Source: Candidatus Poribacteria bacterium (GTDB lineage Bacteria; Poribacteria; WGA-4E; WGA-3G). Taken from it: 64,000 nucleotides of DNA. A model generated the notes under the pieces. That model did no database searches. It was not told where the DNA came from and saw nothing but the letters and a program-made list of their open reading frames with translations. Location: positions 1,408,001-1,472,000 of the forward strand of contig OZ242029.1 in assembly GCA_965205015.1 (NCBI GenBank). The letters are read 5' to 3'. The position numbers and the translations under genes were made by a program. Below are positions 7,827-50,462 of the stretch, piece after piece (within the stretch, counting starts at the first letter, position 1; each line of letters begins with the position of its first letter).

Positions 7827-8597
7827 TTAAACGTTTGAATGCGACTGACAGCCATCAACGTTCACACAGGCACCCGTCACAAGACTCGCGCGTTCCGATG
7901 CGAGAAAAACGACGACATTTGCGATTTCTTCGGGCTTCCCGAACCTCCCCAGCGGCATATCGCTTTTTACAAAGGCTGCCATCGCTTCGGGATCCGCTGC
8001 GATGCGACGCGCCCAGCCACCCCCCGGAAACAGGATCGAACCCGGGGCAACACTATTCACGCGGATATTGTCCGGTGCGAGCTCCCTTGCCAACGACTTT
8101 GTCATGCTGATCTCGGCGGCTTTTGAAGCGTTGTAAGTGATGTGCCCGCCGCCCTCTCTCCCATAGATCGAGGTGATCATCAGAATCACACCACTCCCTT
8201 GCTTTTTCATTTCAGGGATCGCGCGTTGATTCACCCGCGCCGCAGATACAAGATTCAGGTCGAGGATTTCGTGCCATTCGGTGTCCGAAATCTCTTCGAG
8301 AGGGGTCCACCGACTGCCACCGACGTTGTTCACAACGACATCAATTCCACCATACGTTTCCACGGTTTCTGCGATGAACGCATCGACCTGTTCGCCATCC
8401 GTAACATCTGTAAGTTTGGCGAAAACCTCCGCGCCTTTTGCCGACAATTCACCCTGCACGTTTTGGAGCGTCTCTTGGGTTCTGCCACAGATGCTCAACC
8501 GTACACCTTCTTCAGCAAAACCGTGCGCGATAGCACGTCCGATACCGCGACTCGCCCCCGTTACAACGACCACTTTGTTCTTGAGTCCTAAGTCCAT
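7827..8597 (-). CDS. SDR family oxidoreductase (copy 1)
   Basis: TGASRGIG, NNVG, YNASK; start MDLGLKNK with GGAGA RBS. Confidence 0.93.
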   Translation of the reverse strand: MDLGLKNKVVVVTGASRGIGRAIAHGFAEEGVRLSICGRTQETLQNVQGELSAKGAEVFAKLTDVTDGEQVDAFIAETVETYGGIDVVVNNVGGSRWTPLEEISDTEWHEILDLNLVSAARVNQRAIPEMKKQGSGVILMITSIYGREGGGHITYNASKAAEISMTKSLARELAPDNIRVNSVAPGSILFPGGGWARRIAADPEAMAAFVKSDMPLGRFGKPEEIANVVVFLASERASLVTGACVNVDGCQSHSNV

Positions 8598-34204: not shown

Positions 34205-36889
34205 CTATTTTCTTATCAACATCTTGCGCGTCGCGGTAAAGTCGCCTGTGGTGAGGGTGTAGAAATACAAACCACTCGCCACGGGTTCACCCACAGCGTT
34301 TCTGCCATCCCAATACGCAGCACGCTCCCGACTGTTATAGAAGCCTGCGGATTGATAACCGAGGGAAAGTGTGCGGATCAACCTACCGGTTGTATCATAA
34401 ATAGAGACAGAGACTGGACTGTCTTCGGAGAGTTGATACGGAATCCACGTTTCCGGGTTAAACGGGTTCGGGTAGTTCTGCAACAGGAGATTCTGCTCCG
34501 GTCTACCAATACCATCAAGTCTGACAGACAAAACGGCGTTCGCTAAATGCTCAGGGGTCACTTTGAAAGTGAGGGTCTGAGATTCAACATTTCCAGATGG
34601 ACCGATGACACGTAGCTCAACCCTGTCTCCAACTTCAACGACGCTGCGTCGCGTTAAGTCGGCAGTCGCAGCAGCGAAATAATCCCCTTGGACGGAGGCG
34701 GCTATCTCGCTATTTGTTCTCAGGTTACGGACGATGACCTTGTAGCCGTCAAACGTTGGTTTACCTTTCAAATGCCCACTGACGACGAATGCCCATGCTT
34801 CTTGGGGGGTCTGCGTGGAGAGAGCAGGTGCGGCAGCAGCTTCCGTCGTTTCGGTGGGATCCGTCCACGGTGCGCCGACGAATGCGAAGTTTCGGATTTC
34901 AGGGACATTGACGATATAGCCGTGTCCACCTTCAATGGAGAAACCGTCATTGGGGGCATCTGGTGTCCATGCCACGAATTTTTGGTTTGGCGCGTCAAAC
35001 ATGATGAGAGTTGTCGCCCCTGCCATGGCGACAAGTGCCTTGGCAGTCATCGGTGTTGCGGGTGCCAGAGGCACAGACAGCATGTTCAACCCTTTAGAGA
35101 GCGTGACGGTGTAGACGTTGCTGTAACTTCCCGCTTCCACTTGTGAGGCAGGTCTTGCGATAAACCCGTGTCTGCGTCCATCGGGGGAGTCATAGTGCCC
35201 GACGACAGAGCCGTCCTGATTGATATTCCAGCCCTCCGTGCTAACGCTCCCCGGAAACCGCAACTCACGTAGGTTGACGGGGTTGCCGATATAAGTGCGC
35301 GGGACATCACCCGCCTCTTTCGCGCGGCCAATGACACTTCTTGATTCGTTGAAGCCGTGGAGAAAAAAGTATTCCAGATTTAGGGCGGATGGAAGGTCGA
35401 TATATAAAAACCTACCCGTCCGACCCCGTACGTATGCGTGATAGGTGCCCGCCGCATCGGTGTAGCTGCCCACGATATTGCCTGCCCAACTCACAAAATC
35501 GGCATACGTTGCCGATGCGCCAGGGACCTCAATGATTGTATCGCCTGAGAACCCACGGCGAACGCCGGACGCATCTGTAAAATTACCCGTCAGTCTCCCT
35601 GTCGCATCACTGTAACCGTATATCTCCGTTTCAACAGCACCCGGAAAATCGTATGGGTGCAACTTACCCTCTTCCAAGACGACACCGTGGTAGAGACCGT
35701 CGCTATCTTGGTAGTGTCCCGCGGCGACCCCATTATTACCGAGGGCAAAGAAATAAGTGCCTTGCGAGCCAGGGTAATCGTAGGTTGTAAAAACGCCATC
35801 AATCAACGTAAAGCCGACCATTTTTTGACCATCGGCACTCCGAGTGTTCCCGGCGTAATCCTCAAAGTCACTACTTGCAGTTATCTCTAAAAAGTCTACA
35901 CCCGGCACATCAATTGTCTCGAATGTAAAGCCGGCGAGTGTGCCAGATCGTCTGCTGACGCTTGGAGCAGTGCTCTCTACCGGTTTTGCAATGAACCCGT
36001 GTCTGCGTCCATCGGGGGAGTCGTAGTGCCCGACGACGGAGCCGTCCTGATTGATGTTCCACCCCTCTGTGACAACGCTATCCGGAACCCGTAATTCTTG
36101 TAGGTTGAGGACGTTGCCCACATAAGTGCGCGGGACACCCCCTACCGGTTTGGCGCGCCCAACAGCAATCACTCTATCGTTGATACTGTGGAGAAAAAAA
36201 TAGTCCAACACTCCTTGTAGTGGAAGGTTGATCGTTGCAAAACTCCCCTTCTCACCCCGGACGTATGCATGATAGGTGCCTGCAGCATCCACGTAACTTC
36301 CCACGATATTGCTGAACCCACTCACAAAATCGGCGTAAGTTGCCGATGCGCCGGGATACGCAACGATTGTGTCGCCTGAGAAACCGCGCCGAACACCAGA
36401 AACATCTATAAAATTACCCGTCAGTCTCCCAGTGGCATCACTATAACCGAAGATTTGGGTTTCAACAGCACCCGGAAAATCGTATTGCCGCATTTCGCCG
36501 TTTTCCAAGATAACGCCATGATACAGACCGTTGCTATCTTGATAGTGGCCCGCAGCTTGACCATTATTGCCGAGTGCATAGAAATAGGTGTTCTGTGCGT
36601 CCGGGAACTCATAGGTCGTAAAAACGCCATCAATCAGCGTAAAGCCGATTTCTTTTTCACCATCGGCACTTTTCGTGTAGCCTGCGTAGTCCTCGAAGTC
36701 ACTACTTGCCGTCACCGCTAAGAAGTCTACACCGGGAACGTCGATCGTCTCAAAGGTATAGTTGGCATTGGCGGGTGCGACAACGGGTTCGGTGTTGTCT
36801 TGTGCTGCAGTATCCGTTACGAAAAAGGAAACGAGGCATAAGAATAACGTAAATATGGAAAACAAACCTGTTTTCATCTGAGTATACAT
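34205..36889 (-). CDS. Secreted protein with two tandem ~270-aa repeat domains and FlgD-Ig/T9SS-like C-terminal domain
   Basis: FETIDVPGVDFL...HGFIA twice; LLQNYPNPFNPETWIPYQL...TRKMLIRK. Confidence 0.9.
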   Translation of the reverse strand: MYTQMKTGLFSIFTLFLCLVSFFVTDTAAQDNTEPVVAPANANYTFETIDVPGVDFLAVTASSDFEDYAGYTKSADGEKEIGFTLIDGVFTTYEFPDAQNTYFYALGNNGQAAGHYQDSNGLYHGVILENGEMRQYDFPGAVETQIFGYSDATGRLTGNFIDVSGVRRGFSGDTIVAYPGASATYADFVSGFSNIVGSYVDAAGTYHAYVRGEKGSFATINLPLQGVLDYFFLHSINDRVIAVGRAKPVGGVPRTYVGNVLNLQELRVPDSVVTEGWNINQDGSVVGHYDSPDGRRHGFIAKPVESTAPSVSRRSGTLAGFTFETIDVPGVDFLEITASSDFEDYAGNTRSADGQKMVGFTLIDGVFTTYDYPGSQGTYFFALGNNGVAAGHYQDSDGLYHGVVLEEGKLHPYDFPGAVETEIYGYSDATGRLTGNFTDASGVRRGFSGDTIIEVPGASATYADFVSWAGNIVGSYTDAAGTYHAYVRGRTGRFLYIDLPSALNLEYFFLHGFNESRSVIGRAKEAGDVPRTYIGNPVNLRELRFPGSVSTEGWNINQDGSVVGHYDSPDGRRHGFIARPASQVEAGSYSNVYTVTLSKGLNMLSVPLAPATPMTAKALVAMAGATTLIMFDAPNQKFVAWTPDAPNDGFSIEGGHGYIVNVPEIRNFAFVGAPWTDPTETTEAAAAPALSTQTPQEAWAFVVSGHLKGKPTFDGYKVIVRNLRTNSEIAASVQGDYFAAATADLTRRSVVEVGDRVELRVIGPSGNVESQTLTFKVTPEHLANAVLSVRLDGIGRPEQNLLLQNYPNPFNPETWIPYQLSEDSPVSVSIYDTTGRLIRTLSLGYQSAGFYNSRERAAYWDGRNAVGEPVASGLYFYTLTTGDFTATRKMLIRK

Positions 36890-38529: not shown

Positions 38530-38587
38530 AGGTTGTTTTCGAGTTGACCACCACAGCTTTTAGATTTCCGCACATTTACCGAAAACC

Positions 38588-39769
38588 TTATTTTTTCAAG
38601 GCTGCCCAAGTGCCGACCTGTTTCCGTCTAACCAGACTCGGTGCCGCCGGCGCCGGTTGCTTGTAGAACCCGGGAGACCCCATGTCTTCCCGATGTCCAT
38701 AGTAATAAACCTCCGAGGGCGACTCGCTCGGGACGACCTGATAAGAGACCCGCGCCTGGTTCTGATGGAGCGGTGCCACCGGATCCCCTAACGCACCAAA
38801 AGCTTCCCGACCGAGACGGTGAATCTCTGTGCCATCGGCATCCGTCAACACCCAGCCGAGTTTGAGGACGTTCTCTATGTTCAAGTTGTAGACCTGTGTG
38901 GAAACCTCTATCCCGGAAAACTTTCTCGCCGGGAGACGTTGCGTTGCTAAGATGACAACACCGCCCCCTGGAATACTAAACCCGTCCTCTGTTGCGGCGA
39001 GTGTCAGTGTGTGGACTTTATGGGGGGCGGTGGCCGACCGTCGGGTGGCGTATTGGAACGTGTAGCCTTTGAGGTTGACGGTTTCCTCGGTGTTGGGGTT
39101 ATATACCTCAATCCACTGTGGTAATCCACCACTCCCAGCAGACCAATCTCTGACCATATACTCTGTCACGCGTATCGGTTGCATCAGCGGAGACCCGGGG
39201 CGCCTTTCTTGAGACGCATTTGTCTCAATAGGGACCACCGATTGCGGGGGACCGGATGTCCTTGCCGGCGATTCAGTTGTGGTGTCTGGGGTGGTAGCCG
39301 GTGGACTGTTTCCCGTCCCTGTTGTAACGGGTATATCAGACACTGGGTCCACTGGAGGATCCGGTGTTGGATTCACTACTGCGGGATCTGGTGTTATATC
39401 CCGTTGACTTACCCTTAAACCTAAACCAGTCTGACTGCTACCTCCTCCCCGTTCCTGAACAGGCGGTTCCGGGTACCGTGAAGGATCCCACTCCGGTGAA
39501 GGCACTGACGGTCTCGGCGGTATCGTATTCTTATCACGGCTAAAATGAGCAATTAGGGTCCTGCCATCAGAATATTTATATTCATGCGTATGGACCCCTT
39601 CTTCGCCAGCTCTGGCAACATCGTGATAAGTCATCTCAACAGTAACCCCATCTCTTTTTGGTTCTTCAACCTCATGTGCGCTCACATACGATACTGTAAA
39701 TATAACCGCAGTCAAAGCGAGGGCACAGAGAATAGATAAAATGCTGAATCTAAACATTTTGAAATTCAT
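38588..39769 (-). CDS. Secreted lamin-tail-domain protein, paralog A
   Basis: Signal peptide, P/T linker, IRVTEYM..QWIEVYNP..VNLKGY; tail GTWAALKK. Confidence 0.85.
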   Translation of the reverse strand: MNFKMFRFSILSILCALALTAVIFTVSYVSAHEVEEPKRDGVTVEMTYHDVARAGEEGVHTHEYKYSDGRTLIAHFSRDKNTIPPRPSVPSPEWDPSRYPEPPVQERGGGSSQTGLGLRVSQRDITPDPAVVNPTPDPPVDPVSDIPVTTGTGNSPPATTPDTTTESPARTSGPPQSVVPIETNASQERRPGSPLMQPIRVTEYMVRDWSAGSGGLPQWIEVYNPNTEETVNLKGYTFQYATRRSATAPHKVHTLTLAATEDGFSIPGGGVVILATQRLPARKFSGIEVSTQVYNLNIENVLKLGWVLTDADGTEIHRLGREAFGALGDPVAPLHQNQARVSYQVVPSESPSEVYYYGHREDMGSPGFYKQPAPAAPSLVRRKQVGTWAALKK

Positions 39770-39781
39770 TTTTACATACCC

Positions 39782-40048
39782 TGCTGTGGAGATGGTCAAA
39801 AAAAAGGGGTCTCTATTAGTTTTCATACGCGTTAGTAGAAAGACTTTCATCTTGCGAAGAGGACTGAGCGCCAGAGGCGGGTCGCTTGACGCTTCAAACG
39901 TCTCCTCCTTTCTAATGCCCTATAGTTACTTGGGTCACTTTTTACTTATTTATCATATAAAATATAAATGACATAGGTAACTAAGGATTATACAAAATTT
40001 TCAGATAAAAAGCAAATTATATCTACAAAAATTGCTAATTTTTCTTAA
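39782..40048 (-). repeat. Duplicated promoter/leader module, copy A
   Basis: Near-identical to 41724-41988; TTGCTT(40015)-17-TATAAT(39987). Confidence 0.9.
39847..39897 (-). CDS. Putative 16-aa leader peptide MKRQATRLWRSVLFAR (copy A)
   Basis: AGAAAGGAGG SD, TTG start; same peptide in copy B. Confidence 0.55.
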   Translation of the reverse strand: MKRQATRLWRSVLFAR

Positions 40049-40144
40049 AAAACGATGTCAACCGATGTAGATCGCCATGAGAATGCACGCAAAGCCGCTG
40101 AATCTTGTGGGGGTCTATCGGTGCCCCCCACAAGAGATAAAACC

Positions 40145-41440
40145 TTATTTTTTCAAGGCTGCCCAAGTGCCGACCTGTTTCCGTCTAACCAGACTCGGTG
40201 CCGCCGGCGCCGGTTGCTTGTAGAACCCGGGAGACCCCATGTCTTCCCGATGTCCATAGTAATAAACCTCCGGGGGCGACTCGCTCGGGACGACCTGATA
40301 AGAGACACGCGCCCCGTTCTGATGGAGCGGTGCCACCGGATCCCCTAACGCACTAAAGGCAGCCCTACCGAGACGCTGAATCTCCTTGCCATCGGCATCC
40401 GTCAACACCCACCCGCGTTTGAGGACGTTGTCTATGCTCAGGTTGTAGACCTGGGAGGCTCCAATACCGGAAAATCGCCATGCCGAAACTGTTTCGGTTG
40501 ATAGGATCGCGACACCGCCTCCCGCGATGCTGAACCCGTCCTCTGTTCCGGCGAGTGTCAGCGTATGGACTTTATAGGGGGCGGTGGCTGACCGTCGGGT
40601 GGCGTATTGGAACGTGTAGCCTTTGAGGTTGACTGCCTCGGTGTTGGGGTTATACACCTCAATCCACTGTGGTAATCCACCACTCCCAGCAGACCAATCT
40701 CTGACCATATACTCTGTGATGCGTATGGGTAATAAAGGTTGAGGCTCGGGTTGCGTTTCTGGTGTACCCTCAAGCGTTGTTCCGTATTTTTGTTGGGCTC
40801 TGAGGAAATTTTGTTCTGTGCTTGTGTCCACAGGGGTTCCGCTATCACCTGTTTCGGATGTCCCTTCAGATGTGCCACCCGTTGCTACCGTTGTGGGTTG
40901 AGGAACCGTCGGTTGGGTAACCGTTGGTTGATTATTAGGCGGCTGATTATTCGGTGGTTGATTATTCGGTGGCTGATCCACAGTCGTATCTGTGCGCCTA
41001 CCTACTCCATCGTGGTCGAAACTCCATGAAAGACCCGGGTGCGTGTGATCATCATCTCCTAGAGTATACGCGTGCGTGTGTGTCCCTGTATGTGTGTGAA
41101 CCACGTAGTCGTCATGTTGGTGGGTATAAAGGGTATGCGTATGCTCTGTATCGACGAGCTCTTCGCGCACCCAGTCTGTAATACCCTCATCATTAGAATG
41201 GAGATCACCGTGGGGAGTTTTCCAATGCTCGTGATACCGGGCGGGATCACCCTCCCCTCCGCCAGCCGTCGTCCCATAGTGCGAGTGGATTGCATTGCTA
41301 TGACAATGCCGCTTTCCATCATGATCATGACAAATAGTAACGTAATTAGGATTAGCAGGTGTGTGTGCGTATACAGATGAAATAGCCGTCAATACACTAA
41401 AAACGAATAAGACGCTAAAAGTCAGTATTCTTGAAACCAT
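40145..41440 (-). CDS. Secreted His-rich lamin-tail-domain protein, paralog B
   Basis: AAGGAG RBS, signal peptide, HxH-rich region, QPPNN x3, LTD, GTWAALKK. Confidence 0.85.
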   Translation of the reverse strand: MVSRILTFSVLFVFSVLTAISSVYAHTPANPNYVTICHDHDGKRHCHSNAIHSHYGTTAGGGEGDPARYHEHWKTPHGDLHSNDEGITDWVREELVDTEHTHTLYTHQHDDYVVHTHTGTHTHAYTLGDDDHTHPGLSWSFDHDGVGRRTDTTVDQPPNNQPPNNQPPNNQPTVTQPTVPQPTTVATGGTSEGTSETGDSGTPVDTSTEQNFLRAQQKYGTTLEGTPETQPEPQPLLPIRITEYMVRDWSAGSGGLPQWIEVYNPNTEAVNLKGYTFQYATRRSATAPYKVHTLTLAGTEDGFSIAGGGVAILSTETVSAWRFSGIGASQVYNLSIDNVLKRGWVLTDADGKEIQRLGRAAFSALGDPVAPLHQNGARVSYQVVPSESPPEVYYYGHREDMGSPGFYKQPAPAAPSLVRRKQVGTWAALKK

Positions 41441-41723
41441 TTTTCTAAATCTCCTTTTTTTGTAGACGTTGAAAGAATAACCGTTATCAAAACAAACGGT
41501 CGCGATACTTGCTGTAACAAAAATAGCCCGCAACGCGGCAAGCGTGTGGAAACGCAGCGCGGGCGGGCGCGCAAAAAAAAACCGCGACAGCAGCAGCGCT
41601 GCGGACGCAGTTCATGAGATAGATATGTAAAATTACTCTACTTGAGTTGAGTGGGGGGGGGAGACTCGCGTCTTGACTAACGACACACCAGCCGGATACC
41701 GGGACCCAGCACAGAGGCACGTT

Positions 41724-41988
41724 TGCTGTGGAGATGTTCAGAAGAAGGGGGTCTCTATTAGTTTTCATACGCGTTGGTAGAAAGGCTTTCATCTTGCGAA
41801 GAGGACTGAGCGCCAGAGGCGGGTCGCTTGACGTTTCAAACGTCCCCTCCTTTCTAATGCTCTATAGTTACTTGGGTCACTTTTTACTTATTCATTATAT
41901 AAAATATGAACGGCATAGGTAACTAAATGATACAAAATTTTCAGGTAAAAAGCAAATTATATTTACAAAAACTGCTAATTTTTCTTAA
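41724..41988 (-). repeat. Duplicated promoter/leader module, copy B
   Basis: TTGCTT-17-TATCAT; same hairpin and uORF as copy A. Confidence 0.9.
41789..41839 (-). CDS. Putative 16-aa leader peptide (copy B)
   Basis: Differs from copy A only by synonymous AAG/AAA. Confidence 0.55.
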   Translation of the reverse strand: MKRQATRLWRSVLFAR

Positions 41989-47851: not shown

Positions 47852-48715
47852 ATGCTTGACGAACGCCATCTACAACATCAGATTACCGACGAACAACGTC
47901 GCGAGCTGAACGAAAACGGGTATTTTACTGTTCAAGACGCGCTTCCACCAGATCTCGTCGAACGGCTTGAGACCAAGGTGGACACCATCTACCAGAACCA
48001 TCTTGACGCTGGCTACGATCCATACAGCAAGCGTCAACTCACTGCGCATAACAACTTCTTCTATCCGAATTTTCTCGGCACAGATCAAGTTTTCGTGAAT
48101 ATTTTAGATTGGTATAAAACGTTCCCGAAAGTCTGGGGAATCTTGGGATGGAATATTTACTCCTATCATAGCCATTTCATCATCACGCCGCCGCGCCCCG
48201 ATGCGGTCCGCGGTAAACCCACCCCACTTGGCTGGCATCAGGACAGTGGACGCGTTAACTTCGAGATCGAAAGCTCACCGCGCCCCCGTCTTTCCATAAA
48301 AGTTGTCTATTGGCTATCCGACTGTTCCGAAACGGGACGTGGGAATTTCTATGTCATACCGGGAAGCCACCTCTGGGATAAACTCGATCGACCCGAAGAC
48401 GGTTCGATGCCAGACAGGGCAACACCCGTCTGCTGCAAGCCCGGGGATGCAGTCTTTTTCGACCGACGGATATGGCACGCCCGCAGCGAAAACGATTCAG
48501 ACATCACCCGAAAGGGACTTTTCTATGGGTACGGCTACCGATGGCTACGGAGTAAGGACGACATGACGATCCCCACAGAGATGTTTGAACGGAACGATCC
48601 GATTCGACAGCAACTCCTCGGGGGTGGCACCAACGCAAACGGGCATTTTACACCCAAGGATGTAGATGTACCGTTGAAGGTATGGCTTGAAGAAAAAGGG
48701 ATCATTTCTCACTGA
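47852..48715 (+). CDS. PhyH family dioxygenase
   Basis: ENGYF, WHQD, VIPGSH, GDAVFFDRRIWH. Confidence 0.92.
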   Translation: MLDERHLQHQITDEQRRELNENGYFTVQDALPPDLVERLETKVDTIYQNHLDAGYDPYSKRQLTAHNNFFYPNFLGTDQVFVNILDWYKTFPKVWGILGWNIYSYHSHFIITPPRPDAVRGKPTPLGWHQDSGRVNFEIESSPRPRLSIKVVYWLSDCSETGRGNFYVIPGSHLWDKLDRPEDGSMPDRATPVCCKPGDAVFFDRRIWHARSENDSDITRKGLFYGYGYRWLRSKDDMTIPTEMFERNDPIRQQLLGGGTNANGHFTPKDVDVPLKVWLEEKGIISH

Positions 48716-48767
48716 AATCACGCGGTTAACGCAGCCCAAATCAGTGGCATGCTAAACGCAAATTTAC

Positions 48768-48796
48768 TTGACATCCACAGCAAAATAGCGTATAAT
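48768..48796 (+). promoter_or_regulatory. sigma70 promoter
   Basis: TTGACA-17-TATAAT exact consensus. Confidence 0.85.
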
Positions 48797-48833
48797 TCCA
48801 TTAACTTAACGTATTTACCGGAGGCATAACGCG

Positions 48834-49844
48834 ATGTTTCAAACGCAGCTGAATGCGAGCGTCTGGGCTGTTATCCTCATAACAGCGATTTTGATTCCAG
48901 CAGCTTCAGGGGAGGAAGCAGTGACAACGCCAAACACACTAAAAGTAGGCATGGTCGCCCCAGATTTTACATTGAAAGATGAAGAAGGCGTTGAGCGAAG
49001 TCTCAGCGATTATTTAGGCAAGAAGAATATCGTTCTCGCTTTCTATCCAAAAGATTTTACAGGTGGCTGAACAACTGAACTTTGCTCGCTCCGGGATAAT
49101 TTGAGCGAGATAGAAGCGACCGGCAGTGTCCTGTTCGGGGTCAGTGTTGATTCTGTTGAATCGCACAAGCGGTTCCGGGCAGAACAGAAATTCGGATTTT
49201 CACTCTTAGCCGATACCGAATTTAAGGTGAGCCACCAGTATAGTGGTATCATTGAAAGTTTCAATGCCTCAAAACGAGTAACTTTCATCATTGATAAAGC
49301 CGGATACATCCGTGCCATTGATACGGATGTCAATGTCAAAACGCACGGTGAAGATGTCGCAGCCCTGCTTAAGGAAGTCTTACCGAAGATAGAGGTTGGG
49401 CAACCCGCCCCAGATTTTATTGCAGCCGATGGGACCGGTAAAACGCACCAACTCAGCGAATGGCATCAGGAAAAGAATGTCGTATTAGCCTTCTATCCAC
49501 GCGATTTTGGGCGTGGCTGAACGACTCAAGTTTGCTCACTCCGGGATGAGTCGAGTTATTTTGAGAAATACGATGCACAGATTTTTGGGATTACGTCGAA
49601 TGATGCGGCTTCGCACCAAAAATTTTCGGAAGAAAATCAGCTGAATTTCCCGCTCTTGGTAGACACCGGACGTAACCTCGCCCTCCTCTTTGGTGCGACG
49701 AATGCCCCAGACGGGAAGATTCAACGGTTAGCTGTTATCATTGATAAAACTGGAAAGATTCTTGAGATTGATAAAGAGGTCAACGCCAGTACGCACGGTG
49801 CGGACTTAGTTGATTTCTTTAAAAATTTGGAAACGTCAAATTAA
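48834..49844 (+). CDS. Exported tandem two-domain BCP/PrxQ peroxiredoxin with two selenocysteines (336 aa)
   Basis: Three ORF-track pieces are in one frame; UGA at 49068 and 49518 fall at the peroxidatic position (FTGG-U-TTELC; FGRG-U-TTQVC). Confidence 0.9.
49085..49109 (+). promoter_or_regulatory. SECIS-like hairpin 1
   Basis: CTCGCTC-CGGGATAATTT-GAGCGAG starting 15 nt after UGA. Confidence 0.75.
49535..49555 (+). promoter_or_regulatory. SECIS-like hairpin 2
   Basis: CTCACTC-CGGGAT-GAGT(C)GAG starting 15 nt after UGA. Confidence 0.75.
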
Positions 49845-50462
49845 TTGATGGAGCGTAGCGATTTATCGACAATGCCGGCGCGCATCGCGTGGGGTACCTC
49901 TGTTCTCTTCAGTCCATTTTTGGTTCCAATCGCAACCGCCGTTGGTGTGATCCAAAAACATGCGGCGCCCCAAAACGCACTCCGCTGGTTGGTAATTGTT
50001 GTCCTATTTGTTACCGTGCTACCGGTACTATCCATTGCGGTGATGGCTCGGTATGCTAAAGTCAGCGATCTGCACTTGCATAATAGGGAAGAGCGACTCC
50101 TGCCTTTATGCTGTACGGTTGTCAGTATGGTTGTAGGGACTGTCCTACTGCATCAACTTGGTGCGGCACGGGAAATCGTCTGGGCAGGCATTGCTTACAT
50201 CGTAAACAGTCTTATTTTTTCGGCAATTACCCCGATGTGGAAAATAAGCTTTCACAGCAGTGTCGCCACCGGATGTGTCACCGTCCTCGTCATGCTCGTC
50301 AATCCACAATTCGGCTGGCTATTTTTGCTGACGCCGCTGATCGCTTGGGCACGGGTTTACCGAAAACGACACACACTTCTCCAAACCGTCGTCGGCGCAG
50401 TGCTCGCCGTTGGCAACACAGTATTCATTTTGTATATGGCGAACCTTGGGGGTCAAAGTTAG
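49845..50462 (+). CDS. PAP2-like membrane protein
   Basis: WKISFH, WARVYRKRHT..Q; multiple TM. Confidence 0.75.
   Translation: MMERSDLSTMPARIAWGTSVLFSPFLVPIATAVGVIQKHAAPQNALRWLVIVVLFVTVLPVLSIAVMARYAKVSDLHLHNREERLLPLCCTVVSMVVGTVLLHQLGAAREIVWAGIAYIVNSLIFSAITPMWKISFHSSVATGCVTVLVMLVNPQFGWLFLLTPLIAWARVYRKRHTLLQTVVGAVLAVGNTVFILYMANLGGQS

Follow-up and report, generated by a model that had tools for sequence, protein, structure and literature searches.

PrxU of Eubacterium acidaminophilum is the prototype of the peroxiredoxins (Prx) that carry selenocysteine (Sec) (Sohling et al. 2001, as cited in PMC13188914), and the portion of a 2026 review catalogue covered here (PMC13188914) enters this group as 'Peroxiredoxin (Prx) PF00578 TxxU, 1 Sec', alongside Prx-like proteins (UxxC/UxxU, 1-2 Sec) and Prx-SUH (1 Sec). 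The same portion lists several unrelated 'double selenoproteins' and does not mention Poribacteria. The locus described here lies in a stretch of 64,000 nucleotides from a Candidatus Poribacteria bacterium (assembly GCA_965205015.1, contig OZ242029.1, positions 1,408,001 to 1,472,000 of the forward strand), the whole of which is called the window, and consists of a gene at 48834..49844 (+) that very probably encodes a double selenoprotein, i.e., an exported or membrane-anchored tandem Prx of the Bcp/PrxQ type in which UGA would be read as Sec at both peroxidatic positions.

The predicted protein resembles the catalogued Sec-Prx in its AhpC/TSA fold, in the use of Sec for the peroxidatic Cys of the PxxxTxxU motif, and in having a candidate selenocysteine insertion sequence (SECIS) within the coding region, just after the UGA. 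In contrast with these proteins, which have one Sec in the catalogue portion covered, it would combine two fused domains, two Sec and two SECIS in one mRNA, and it is further set apart by its Bcp/PrxQ subtype with a U-x4-C arrangement, its export-like leader, and the loss of the domain-2 Thr in most orthologues. The multi-Sec proteins of the same source (MbdU, MduS, and a methyltransferase/UXPK-star fusion) also have two UGA-encoded Sec per polypeptide, each requiring an in-frame SECIS of its own, whereas their folds are different or their fusions join unlike domains, and no duplicated Prx is found in the portion covered (PMC13188914).

Bcp/PrxQ proteins (NF006960; Bcp1 3drn, BcpB 5epf; AhpE 1xxu) give the top sequence and fold matches of each domain, and share with the tandem protein the resolving Cys five residues past the peroxidatic residue and, in domain 1, the active-site P, T and Arg. 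These comparators are single-domain Cys enzymes, unlike the protein predicted here, which would bear Sec at both sites of a tandem fusion. In metagenomes, relatives with one Cys-type domain and a signal-like N-terminus also occur (P0025, P0029, P0031). A precedent for an envelope Prx with electron delivery of the DsbD type is found in PprX of Caulobacter crescentus, a periplasmic Prx whose reduction is carried out by TlpA together with ScsB, of the DsbD family. According to the part of the source covered (PMC3322552), PprX is a one-domain Cys enzyme, in contrast to the two-domain, two-Sec form; a DsbD-family transporter gene is present in all five of the closest poribacterial genomes.

The chemistry of Sec-Prx and the existence of double selenoproteins are already known, and it is the duplicated Prx form that is absent from the covered portion of the catalogue. 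A literature search for a tandem or double-Sec Prx, or for such selenoproteins in Poribacteria, found none, with most subscription journals outside its scope.

One reading frame with two conserved in-frame TGA codons

Read directly, 48834-49844 (+) is a single frame of 336 codons, from the ATG at 48834 to the TAA at 49842-49844, which contains exactly two internal stops, both of them TGA, at 49068-49070 (codon 79, candidate Sec79) and 49518-49520 (codon 229, candidate Sec229). Under table 11 the frame splits into open reading frames (ORFs) of 78, 139 and 62 aa, which a first-pass annotation made from the sequence alone had already joined into one gene, placing each TGA at the peroxidatic Cys of a BCP domain in a UxxxxC arrangement. 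Both proposals agree with the analysis. The motifs are YPKDFTGG-U-TTELC in domain 1 and YPRDFGRG-U-TTQVC in domain 2, with U-x4-C in both.

The conservation of these codons, which had been named beforehand as a test that could refute the proposal, was examined by scanning one genome per species, which returned 308 pattern matches. A relative is encoded by 213 of them, and the analysis used the best 80 of these loci. These 80 (77 Poribacteria and three labelled 'uncultured bacterium') have 60-96% protein identity and, in most cases, syntenic flanking genes. The TGA of site 1 is kept in 79/79 readable loci, L050 being a run of N at this point, and that of site 2 in 80/80. The pattern extends across the phylum, in which a match at E 1e-40 or better was obtained for 153/175 genomes, and exactly two in-frame TGA are found in 144 of the 150 matches listed, down to 49% identity, with six further matches beyond those listed. 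The exceptions among the matches listed comprise two partial matches (G130, with one TGA and one TAA, and G079, with one TGA), two with three TGA (G105 and G023), and two second copies (G094, with one TGA, and G053, with one TGA and two TAG).

Among the predicted proteins of the public collection, 906 relatives were found, of which 120 were listed and 17 two-domain ones (P0002-P0018) aligned. A W stands at both sites in 16 of these 17 proteins, while P0016 has W at site 1 and G at site 2, within a locally divergent stretch; given the W at the sites, these proteins have been translated with another table. An alignment with Cys homologues, which had also been proposed as a check, places Cys at both sites of P0023, a Cys-type tandem protein of 33% identity, and in the single-domain proteins P0025, P0027, P0029 and P0031 a Cys is found in the matching FYPK-x(5)-C-T motif, as read by motif and unaligned.

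Three metagenome relatives of 200 aa (P0019-P0021) present a Ser at the peroxidatic position of domain 1, in a degraded motif, and their called ORF stops at ...FYPKDFTSG, the expected place of the second TGA. Tandem forms of this kind seem to be half-degenerate, with the second Sec alone retained.

In the 336-codon frame, Pfam recognizes two AhpC/TSA stretches (PF00578, 229.8 bits against a cut-off of 26, E 7.9e-69), and the top NCBIfam model is NF006960, which describes thioredoxin-dependent thiol peroxidases of the Bcp type (180.5 bits, with a threshold of 140). The PrxU model NF040737 reaches 115.4 bits, below its cut-off of 270, and the tandem Prx is therefore not a PrxU equivalog. Domain 1, of the Bcp/PrxQ type, covers approximately residues 36-183 (48939..49382, +; Pfam stretch 38-161, PDB 3drn aligned to 36-183), and domain 2 approximately residues 186-336 (49389..49841, +; Pfam Redoxin stretch 188-318). 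The two domains share 39% identity, and the internal duplication is therefore old.

The AlphaFold2 model, built from a 38-row alignment with C in place of U, has a mean predicted local distance difference test score (pLDDT) of 89.8 and a predicted template modelling score (pTM) of 0.85, with residues 1-33 below 50. Foldseek against the PDB returned Bcp and AhpE chains at the top, each matching one domain, with template modelling (TM) scores of 0.84-0.91; it found single-domain matches only and no two-domain match, and is silent on the domain-domain interface. By sequence, Bcp1 of Sulfolobus (3drn) and AhpE of M. tuberculosis are the closest proteins with a solved structure.

The active-site residues are P72, T76, U79, C84 and R148 in domain 1, and P222, G226 (in place of Thr), U229, C234 and R298 in domain 2. 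Here R148 and R298 are presumed, by their sequence position, to be the catalytic arginines of the motif R-x-T/A-F/V-I-I-D. A residue census over 80 sequences (the window and 79 loci, with L050 omitted) found P72 in 78/80 and T76, U79 and R148 in 80/80 each, while position 84 is C in 39, R in 15, N in 12, Q in 12 and S in two of the 80. In domain 2, P222, U229 and R298 are present in 80/80 and C234 in 79/80. C84 and C234, each five residues past a candidate Sec, are the only Cys of the window protein, and just one or two Cys are found in 78/80 mature orthologues.

SECIS-like hairpins and the selenocysteine machinery

The bacterial SECIS (bSECIS) model, as given in the legend of Fig. 2 of PMC13188914 (source covered in part), has an apical loop of 3-9 nt on an upper stem of 4-16 bp, a distance of 16-37 nt from the UGA to this loop, a minimum free energy (MFE) of -7.5 kcal/mol or lower, and a G in the first or second loop position, mostly followed by G or U. 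Downstream of both TGA codons of the Prx frame, a hairpin is found whose loop opens with CGGGAU at position 25 (the T of TGA being position 1), i.e., 21 nt past the UGA and inside the range of the model. The first-pass annotation had described a hairpin at +15 nt with this loop start; the loop start is borne out, whereas the stems begin 13-14 nt past the UGA. It had also stated that the 3' arms differ while the pairing is kept, and indeed the 5' arms of the two hairpins are near-identical, the 3' arms are different, and both sites fold.

Hairpin 1 (49085..49109, +) has a stem of 7 bp, CUCGCUC with GAGCGAG, formed by 49085-49091 and 49103-49109 (positions 18-24 with 36-42), around the loop CGGGAUAAUUU, and at -10.7 kcal/mol it passes the -7.5 threshold (z -2.6, with 3/200 shuffles folding as well). 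Hairpin 2 (49534..49556, +) pairs GCUCACUC with GAGU-C-GAGU around the hexaloop CGGGAU, through 49534-49541 and 49548-49556 with one bulged C (positions 17-24 with 31-34 and 36-39), and both its loop of 6 nt and its 8 bp are within the sizes of the model. When a possible lower stem predicted in the window (49525..49565, +; 49525-49530 with 49560-49565) is added, the energy of the 63-nt context of hairpin 2 is -14.4 kcal/mol. This lower stem cannot be taken as established, given that 68.1% of its cells are paired across the relatives, where some double changes are found (pair 9-47 is GC in 22 and UA in 9).

The support for the hairpins is their conservation across genomes, not their folding energy. 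At site 2, 99.5% of the upper-helix cells are paired in 70 distinct sequences, against 28-42% in slid controls scored over all 14 pairs of the structure, including the lower stem, with five invariant pairs and two that vary on one side (GU/GC, GU/AU). At site 1, 91.1% of the cells are paired in 74 distinct sequences, against 16-50% in the slid controls, and pair 18-42 is CG in 42, GC in 7, UG in 3 and UA in 1. The change of this pair from C-G to G-C is a true compensation, in which a codon change from Cys to Gln goes together with one from Glu to Asp. The loop reads C-G-G/U-G-A-U at both sites, its third position being G or U throughout the 80 and 81 sequences, in agreement with the G[G|U] of the bSECIS model at loop positions 2-3.

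Given that the conservation of the 5' arms and loops is driven in part by the protein and says little by itself, synonymous sites provide a cleaner test. In the 80-gene alignment, the normalised codon entropy is 0.129 in 14 conserved degenerate codons of the hairpins, against 0.705 in the other 148, a contrast internal to the same genes, with a Mann-Whitney p of 1.3e-9 that is approximate for related sequences. Over the whole gene, synonymous variation in sliding segments of 8 columns is lowest at codons 234-241 and their neighbours, followed by codons 82-91, both of them exactly where the hairpins lie. Leu86 and Leu236, for instance, use CTC in 80/80 and Ser240 uses TCG in 76/77, while the other Leu columns have entropies of 1.5-1.9 bits.

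The fold of site 2 was also tried at site 1, where it was rejected as a general model, given that it fits 16/74 distinct sequences, those of a distant clade that retains FTGG-U in both domains. As the fold is limited to this clade, site 1 has two architectures, and the presence of the site-2 architecture at site 1 in the distant clade fits a duplication of the Sec domain together with its SECIS.

The absence of Sec machinery was the other observation named beforehand as refuting, and the search for it covered the five closest genomes, whose orthologue is 93-96% identical. All five contain selA (519-525 bits), selB (344-354 bits) adjoining the tRNA-Sec, selD (355-360 bits) with one in-frame TGA, and tRNA-Sec itself (59-78 bits against a gathering score of 47), and ARAGORN calls a tRNA-SeC with anticodon TCA in 3/4 loci given. 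Neither of the two refuting conditions was observed in the loci and genomes covered. In related Poribacteria (L093 and L094, about 1531-1560), the TGA of selD lies in VKCAG-U-ASKLAPGEL and is followed by ...CUCGCUCCGGGUGAGC, i.e., a hairpin of GCUC and GAGC around CGGGU as in the Prx, with its loop 16 nt past the UGA, 5 nt nearer than in the Prx.

A lineage model of SECIS had been expected from these hairpins, and this expectation stands in part: the hairpin is common to Prx and selD, while a scan of one complete genome for GCTCCGKG-N1-8-GAGC brought up no additional gene, its 8 hits comparing with 12 for a control pattern. Of the 8, only two, Prx site 1 and selD, follow an in-frame TGA with the frame open before and after it, and the motif was consequently rejected as a general signature of the lineage.

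Weighing the explanations

Against the in silico observations of a single frame, conserved TGA codons, constrained hairpins, Sec machinery in close relatives and a Prx fold, a number of points have to be set that weigh against a double selenoprotein. The machinery was demonstrated only in relatives of 93-96% identity, and tRNA and Rfam scans of the window gave no tRNA-Sec and no Rfam hit, an outcome that is expected because bacterial SECIS of this kind gives no hit and selC lies elsewhere. The folding energies of the 63-nt contexts are unremarkable (z -0.14 and -1.22), hairpin 2 alone, at -7.0 kcal/mol, falls just short of -7.5, and the loop of hairpin 1 has 11 nt, outside the 3-9 nt of the model, although it shrinks to 5 nt if both G-U pairs of the MFE fold are taken as paired. 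A change on both sides of a pair is found in one pair only of the upper stems (18-42) and in no pair of site 2 among its 70 distinct sequences, and the 5' arms and loops encode a conserved C-S-L-R-D, so that their conservation is partly protein-driven. As the first-pass annotation had pointed out, domain 2 lacks the active-site Thr of PxxxTxxC, with G at position 226 in the window and in most of the clade (64/80, against T in 16/80), and no Lys or Arg precedes the hydrophobic core of the leader in the window protein, although one does in 62/80 orthologues.

The UGA codons might instead be read through as another residue, for example Trp, Gly or Cys if the code is reassigned or near-cognate suppression takes place, or Cys carried on tRNA-Sec, and the W placed by public gene callers at both sites of the orthologues would agree with this. 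Nevertheless, TGA terminates 9/43 frames of at least 200 codons in the window, including the neighbouring upstream PhyH-like gene, and a changed genetic code is unlikely in this DNA because ordinary genes end with this codon. A screen of the window for other frames joined by TGA found one long candidate, 23351-24613 (+), which was rejected as a read-through gene because it consists of a 4Fe-4S ferredoxin gene and a separate guanylate kinase gene in the same frame with one TGA between them; for two others, Pfam gave no match. An enzyme with Trp or Gly as its peroxidatic residue would be inactive, and still the codon never varies; moreover, the sites align with Cys in the Cys homologues, the relatives have the full Sec machinery, and the hairpins stand at the expected spacing, all of which makes a non-Sec residue very improbable. 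It is harder still to credit a gene in decay, or three small ORFs independent of one another, with TGA as true stops, as the table 11 split and the weak z-scores of the contexts might suggest, given that the same two TGA and no other stop recur in 79/79 loci at site 1, in 80/80 at site 2, and among 144 of the 150 phylum matches listed. In addition, protein identity persists past each TGA, with the presumed catalytic Arg of both domains invariant, the 139- and 62-aa pieces would be left without the active-site N-terminal halves of their domains, and a contig from an RNA library spans both TGA, although this last point is weak.

A further possibility keeps both Sec and is a variant of the double selenoprotein, in which the domains would be unequal and domain 2 would serve domain 1 as an integral module for resolving or relay. 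The loss of the Cys at U+5 of domain 1 in about half of the orthologues (C in 39/80), compared with its presence at position 234 in 79/80, the prevailing G at position 226, the one or two Cys of the mature proteins in 78/80, and a pTM of 0.85, which suggests a fixed mutual orientation of the domains, all point in this direction. This division of labour is nonetheless doubtful, because 16/80 orthologues have the full PxxxTxxU in both domains, the invariant P, U and Arg of both domains fit two active peroxidase sites, and in P0019-P0021 it is the Sec of domain 1, not that of domain 2, that has been lost. An even less likely extension of this idea is a self-contained redox machine of the envelope, in which domain 1 would take the peroxide and domain 2 would resolve it via an inter-domain selenenylsulfide or diselenide, with participation of the PAP2-like protein encoded downstream. 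Such an intramolecular Sec-to-Sec relay, if real, would be without precedent among bacterial peroxiredoxins.

Returning to the tandem Prx with Sec at both sites, the scheme that we infer from the sequence covers Sec insertion, export, peroxidase activity in each domain and the reductant. The gene would yield a precursor of ~36 kDa, formed by an N-terminal export or anchor sequence and the two Bcp/PrxQ domains derived from the old internal duplication. At each peroxidatic position the ribosome would meet a UGA, and the hairpin with its CGGGAU loop would recruit SelB with Sec-tRNA(Sec), which would lead to the insertion of selenocysteine instead of termination. Each selenolate may then reduce H2O2 or an organic peroxide, giving a selenenic acid, which would form an intramolecular selenenylsulfide with C84 or C234, five residues downstream, to be reduced in turn by a thioredoxin-fold reductant. 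If the protein is exported, this reductant would probably be fed by a membrane electron transporter of the DsbD family.

Gene signals, neighbourhood and biological meaning

The export of the protein is predicted from its conserved hydrophobic N-terminus, where residues 1-25 (...ILIPAASG; 48834..48908, +) form a leader that is probably a signal peptide of the Sec export pathway or a membrane anchor. Residues 9-20 of the window protein are strongly hydrophobic (12-residue mean of 3.0), and a hydrophobic segment of at least 1.8, followed by small residues and an acidic stretch, is present in 77/80 orthologues. The signal peptide proposed by the first-pass annotation is supported as far as this conserved core is concerned, whereas the positive residue expected before the core is missing in the window, and export is the likely outcome, with an uncleaved anchor as a possible alternative. 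The same annotation had reported a consensus promoter, and a putative sigma-70-type element, TTGACA-17 nt-TATAAT, with 12/12 consensus matches, does lie at 48768..48796 (+), followed by a Shine-Dalgarno-like GGAGG at 48820..48824 (+), 9 nt 5' of the ATG.

Directly after the Prx stop, a gene at 49845..50462 (+) encodes a multi-pass membrane protein of 205 aa that is weakly PAP2-like (21.4 bits, below the cut-off of 27.2), and this gene, which occupies the same position and strand in 64/80 loci, may form an operon with the Prx gene. A PhyH-family gene and a GFO/IDH/MocA-family gene are found upstream, and yebC downstream. Contigs from RNA libraries of four studies, compared with 48700-49900, cover the Prx gene; the contig of run X1 (2537 nt, 44 differences) spans both TGA, while run X5 has two contigs with one TGA each. 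As the sampled-word shares of these libraries are <=0.21, the contigs come from relatives and not from this strain, and they are a weak hint of transcription, given that the libraries may contain DNA and the contigs cannot prove a single transcript.

Other repetitive segments were observed in the window. Arrays of tandem repeats of 66 nt (22 codons), with 60-75% identity between copies, lie at 62123-62818 and 60035-60270, one array having 7 to 10 copies and the other, a short one, lying 2 kb upstream. At 7827-8126 and 22350-22649, 14.5 kb apart, a direct repeat of 300 nt or more with 99% identity may be a mobile or duplicated element; the frame at the repeat, 7839-8588, has no Pfam match. Finally, two sets of neighbouring paralogous segments, at 35151-36520 and 38582-41926, with spacings of 831 nt (79-80% identity) and ~1555-1940 nt (82-95% identity), suggest tandemly duplicated genes.

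The tandem Prx has direct consequences for annotation, given that standard gene callers give three ORFs or place W at the active sites, and these split or wrong-table calls mean that a phylum-wide antioxidant enzyme of sponge symbionts is mis-annotated in public data. The two SECIS in one bacterial mRNA, with ~80 natural variants each, provide a ready-made comparative data set on what a non-model SelB tolerates, including the loop CG[G/U]GAU, the two stem architectures of site 1, and the same hairpin in selD.

The presence of a probably exported Sec peroxidase in 153/175 genomes suggests that the removal of peroxide at the cell surface matters for life inside an oxygen-pumping host. The conservation of this Sec-Prx likewise suggests that these symbionts have a genuine need for selenium, which fits the enrichment of SelA/SelB clusters of orthologous groups (COGs) in bins of sponge symbionts given in the part of PMC5649159 covered here.

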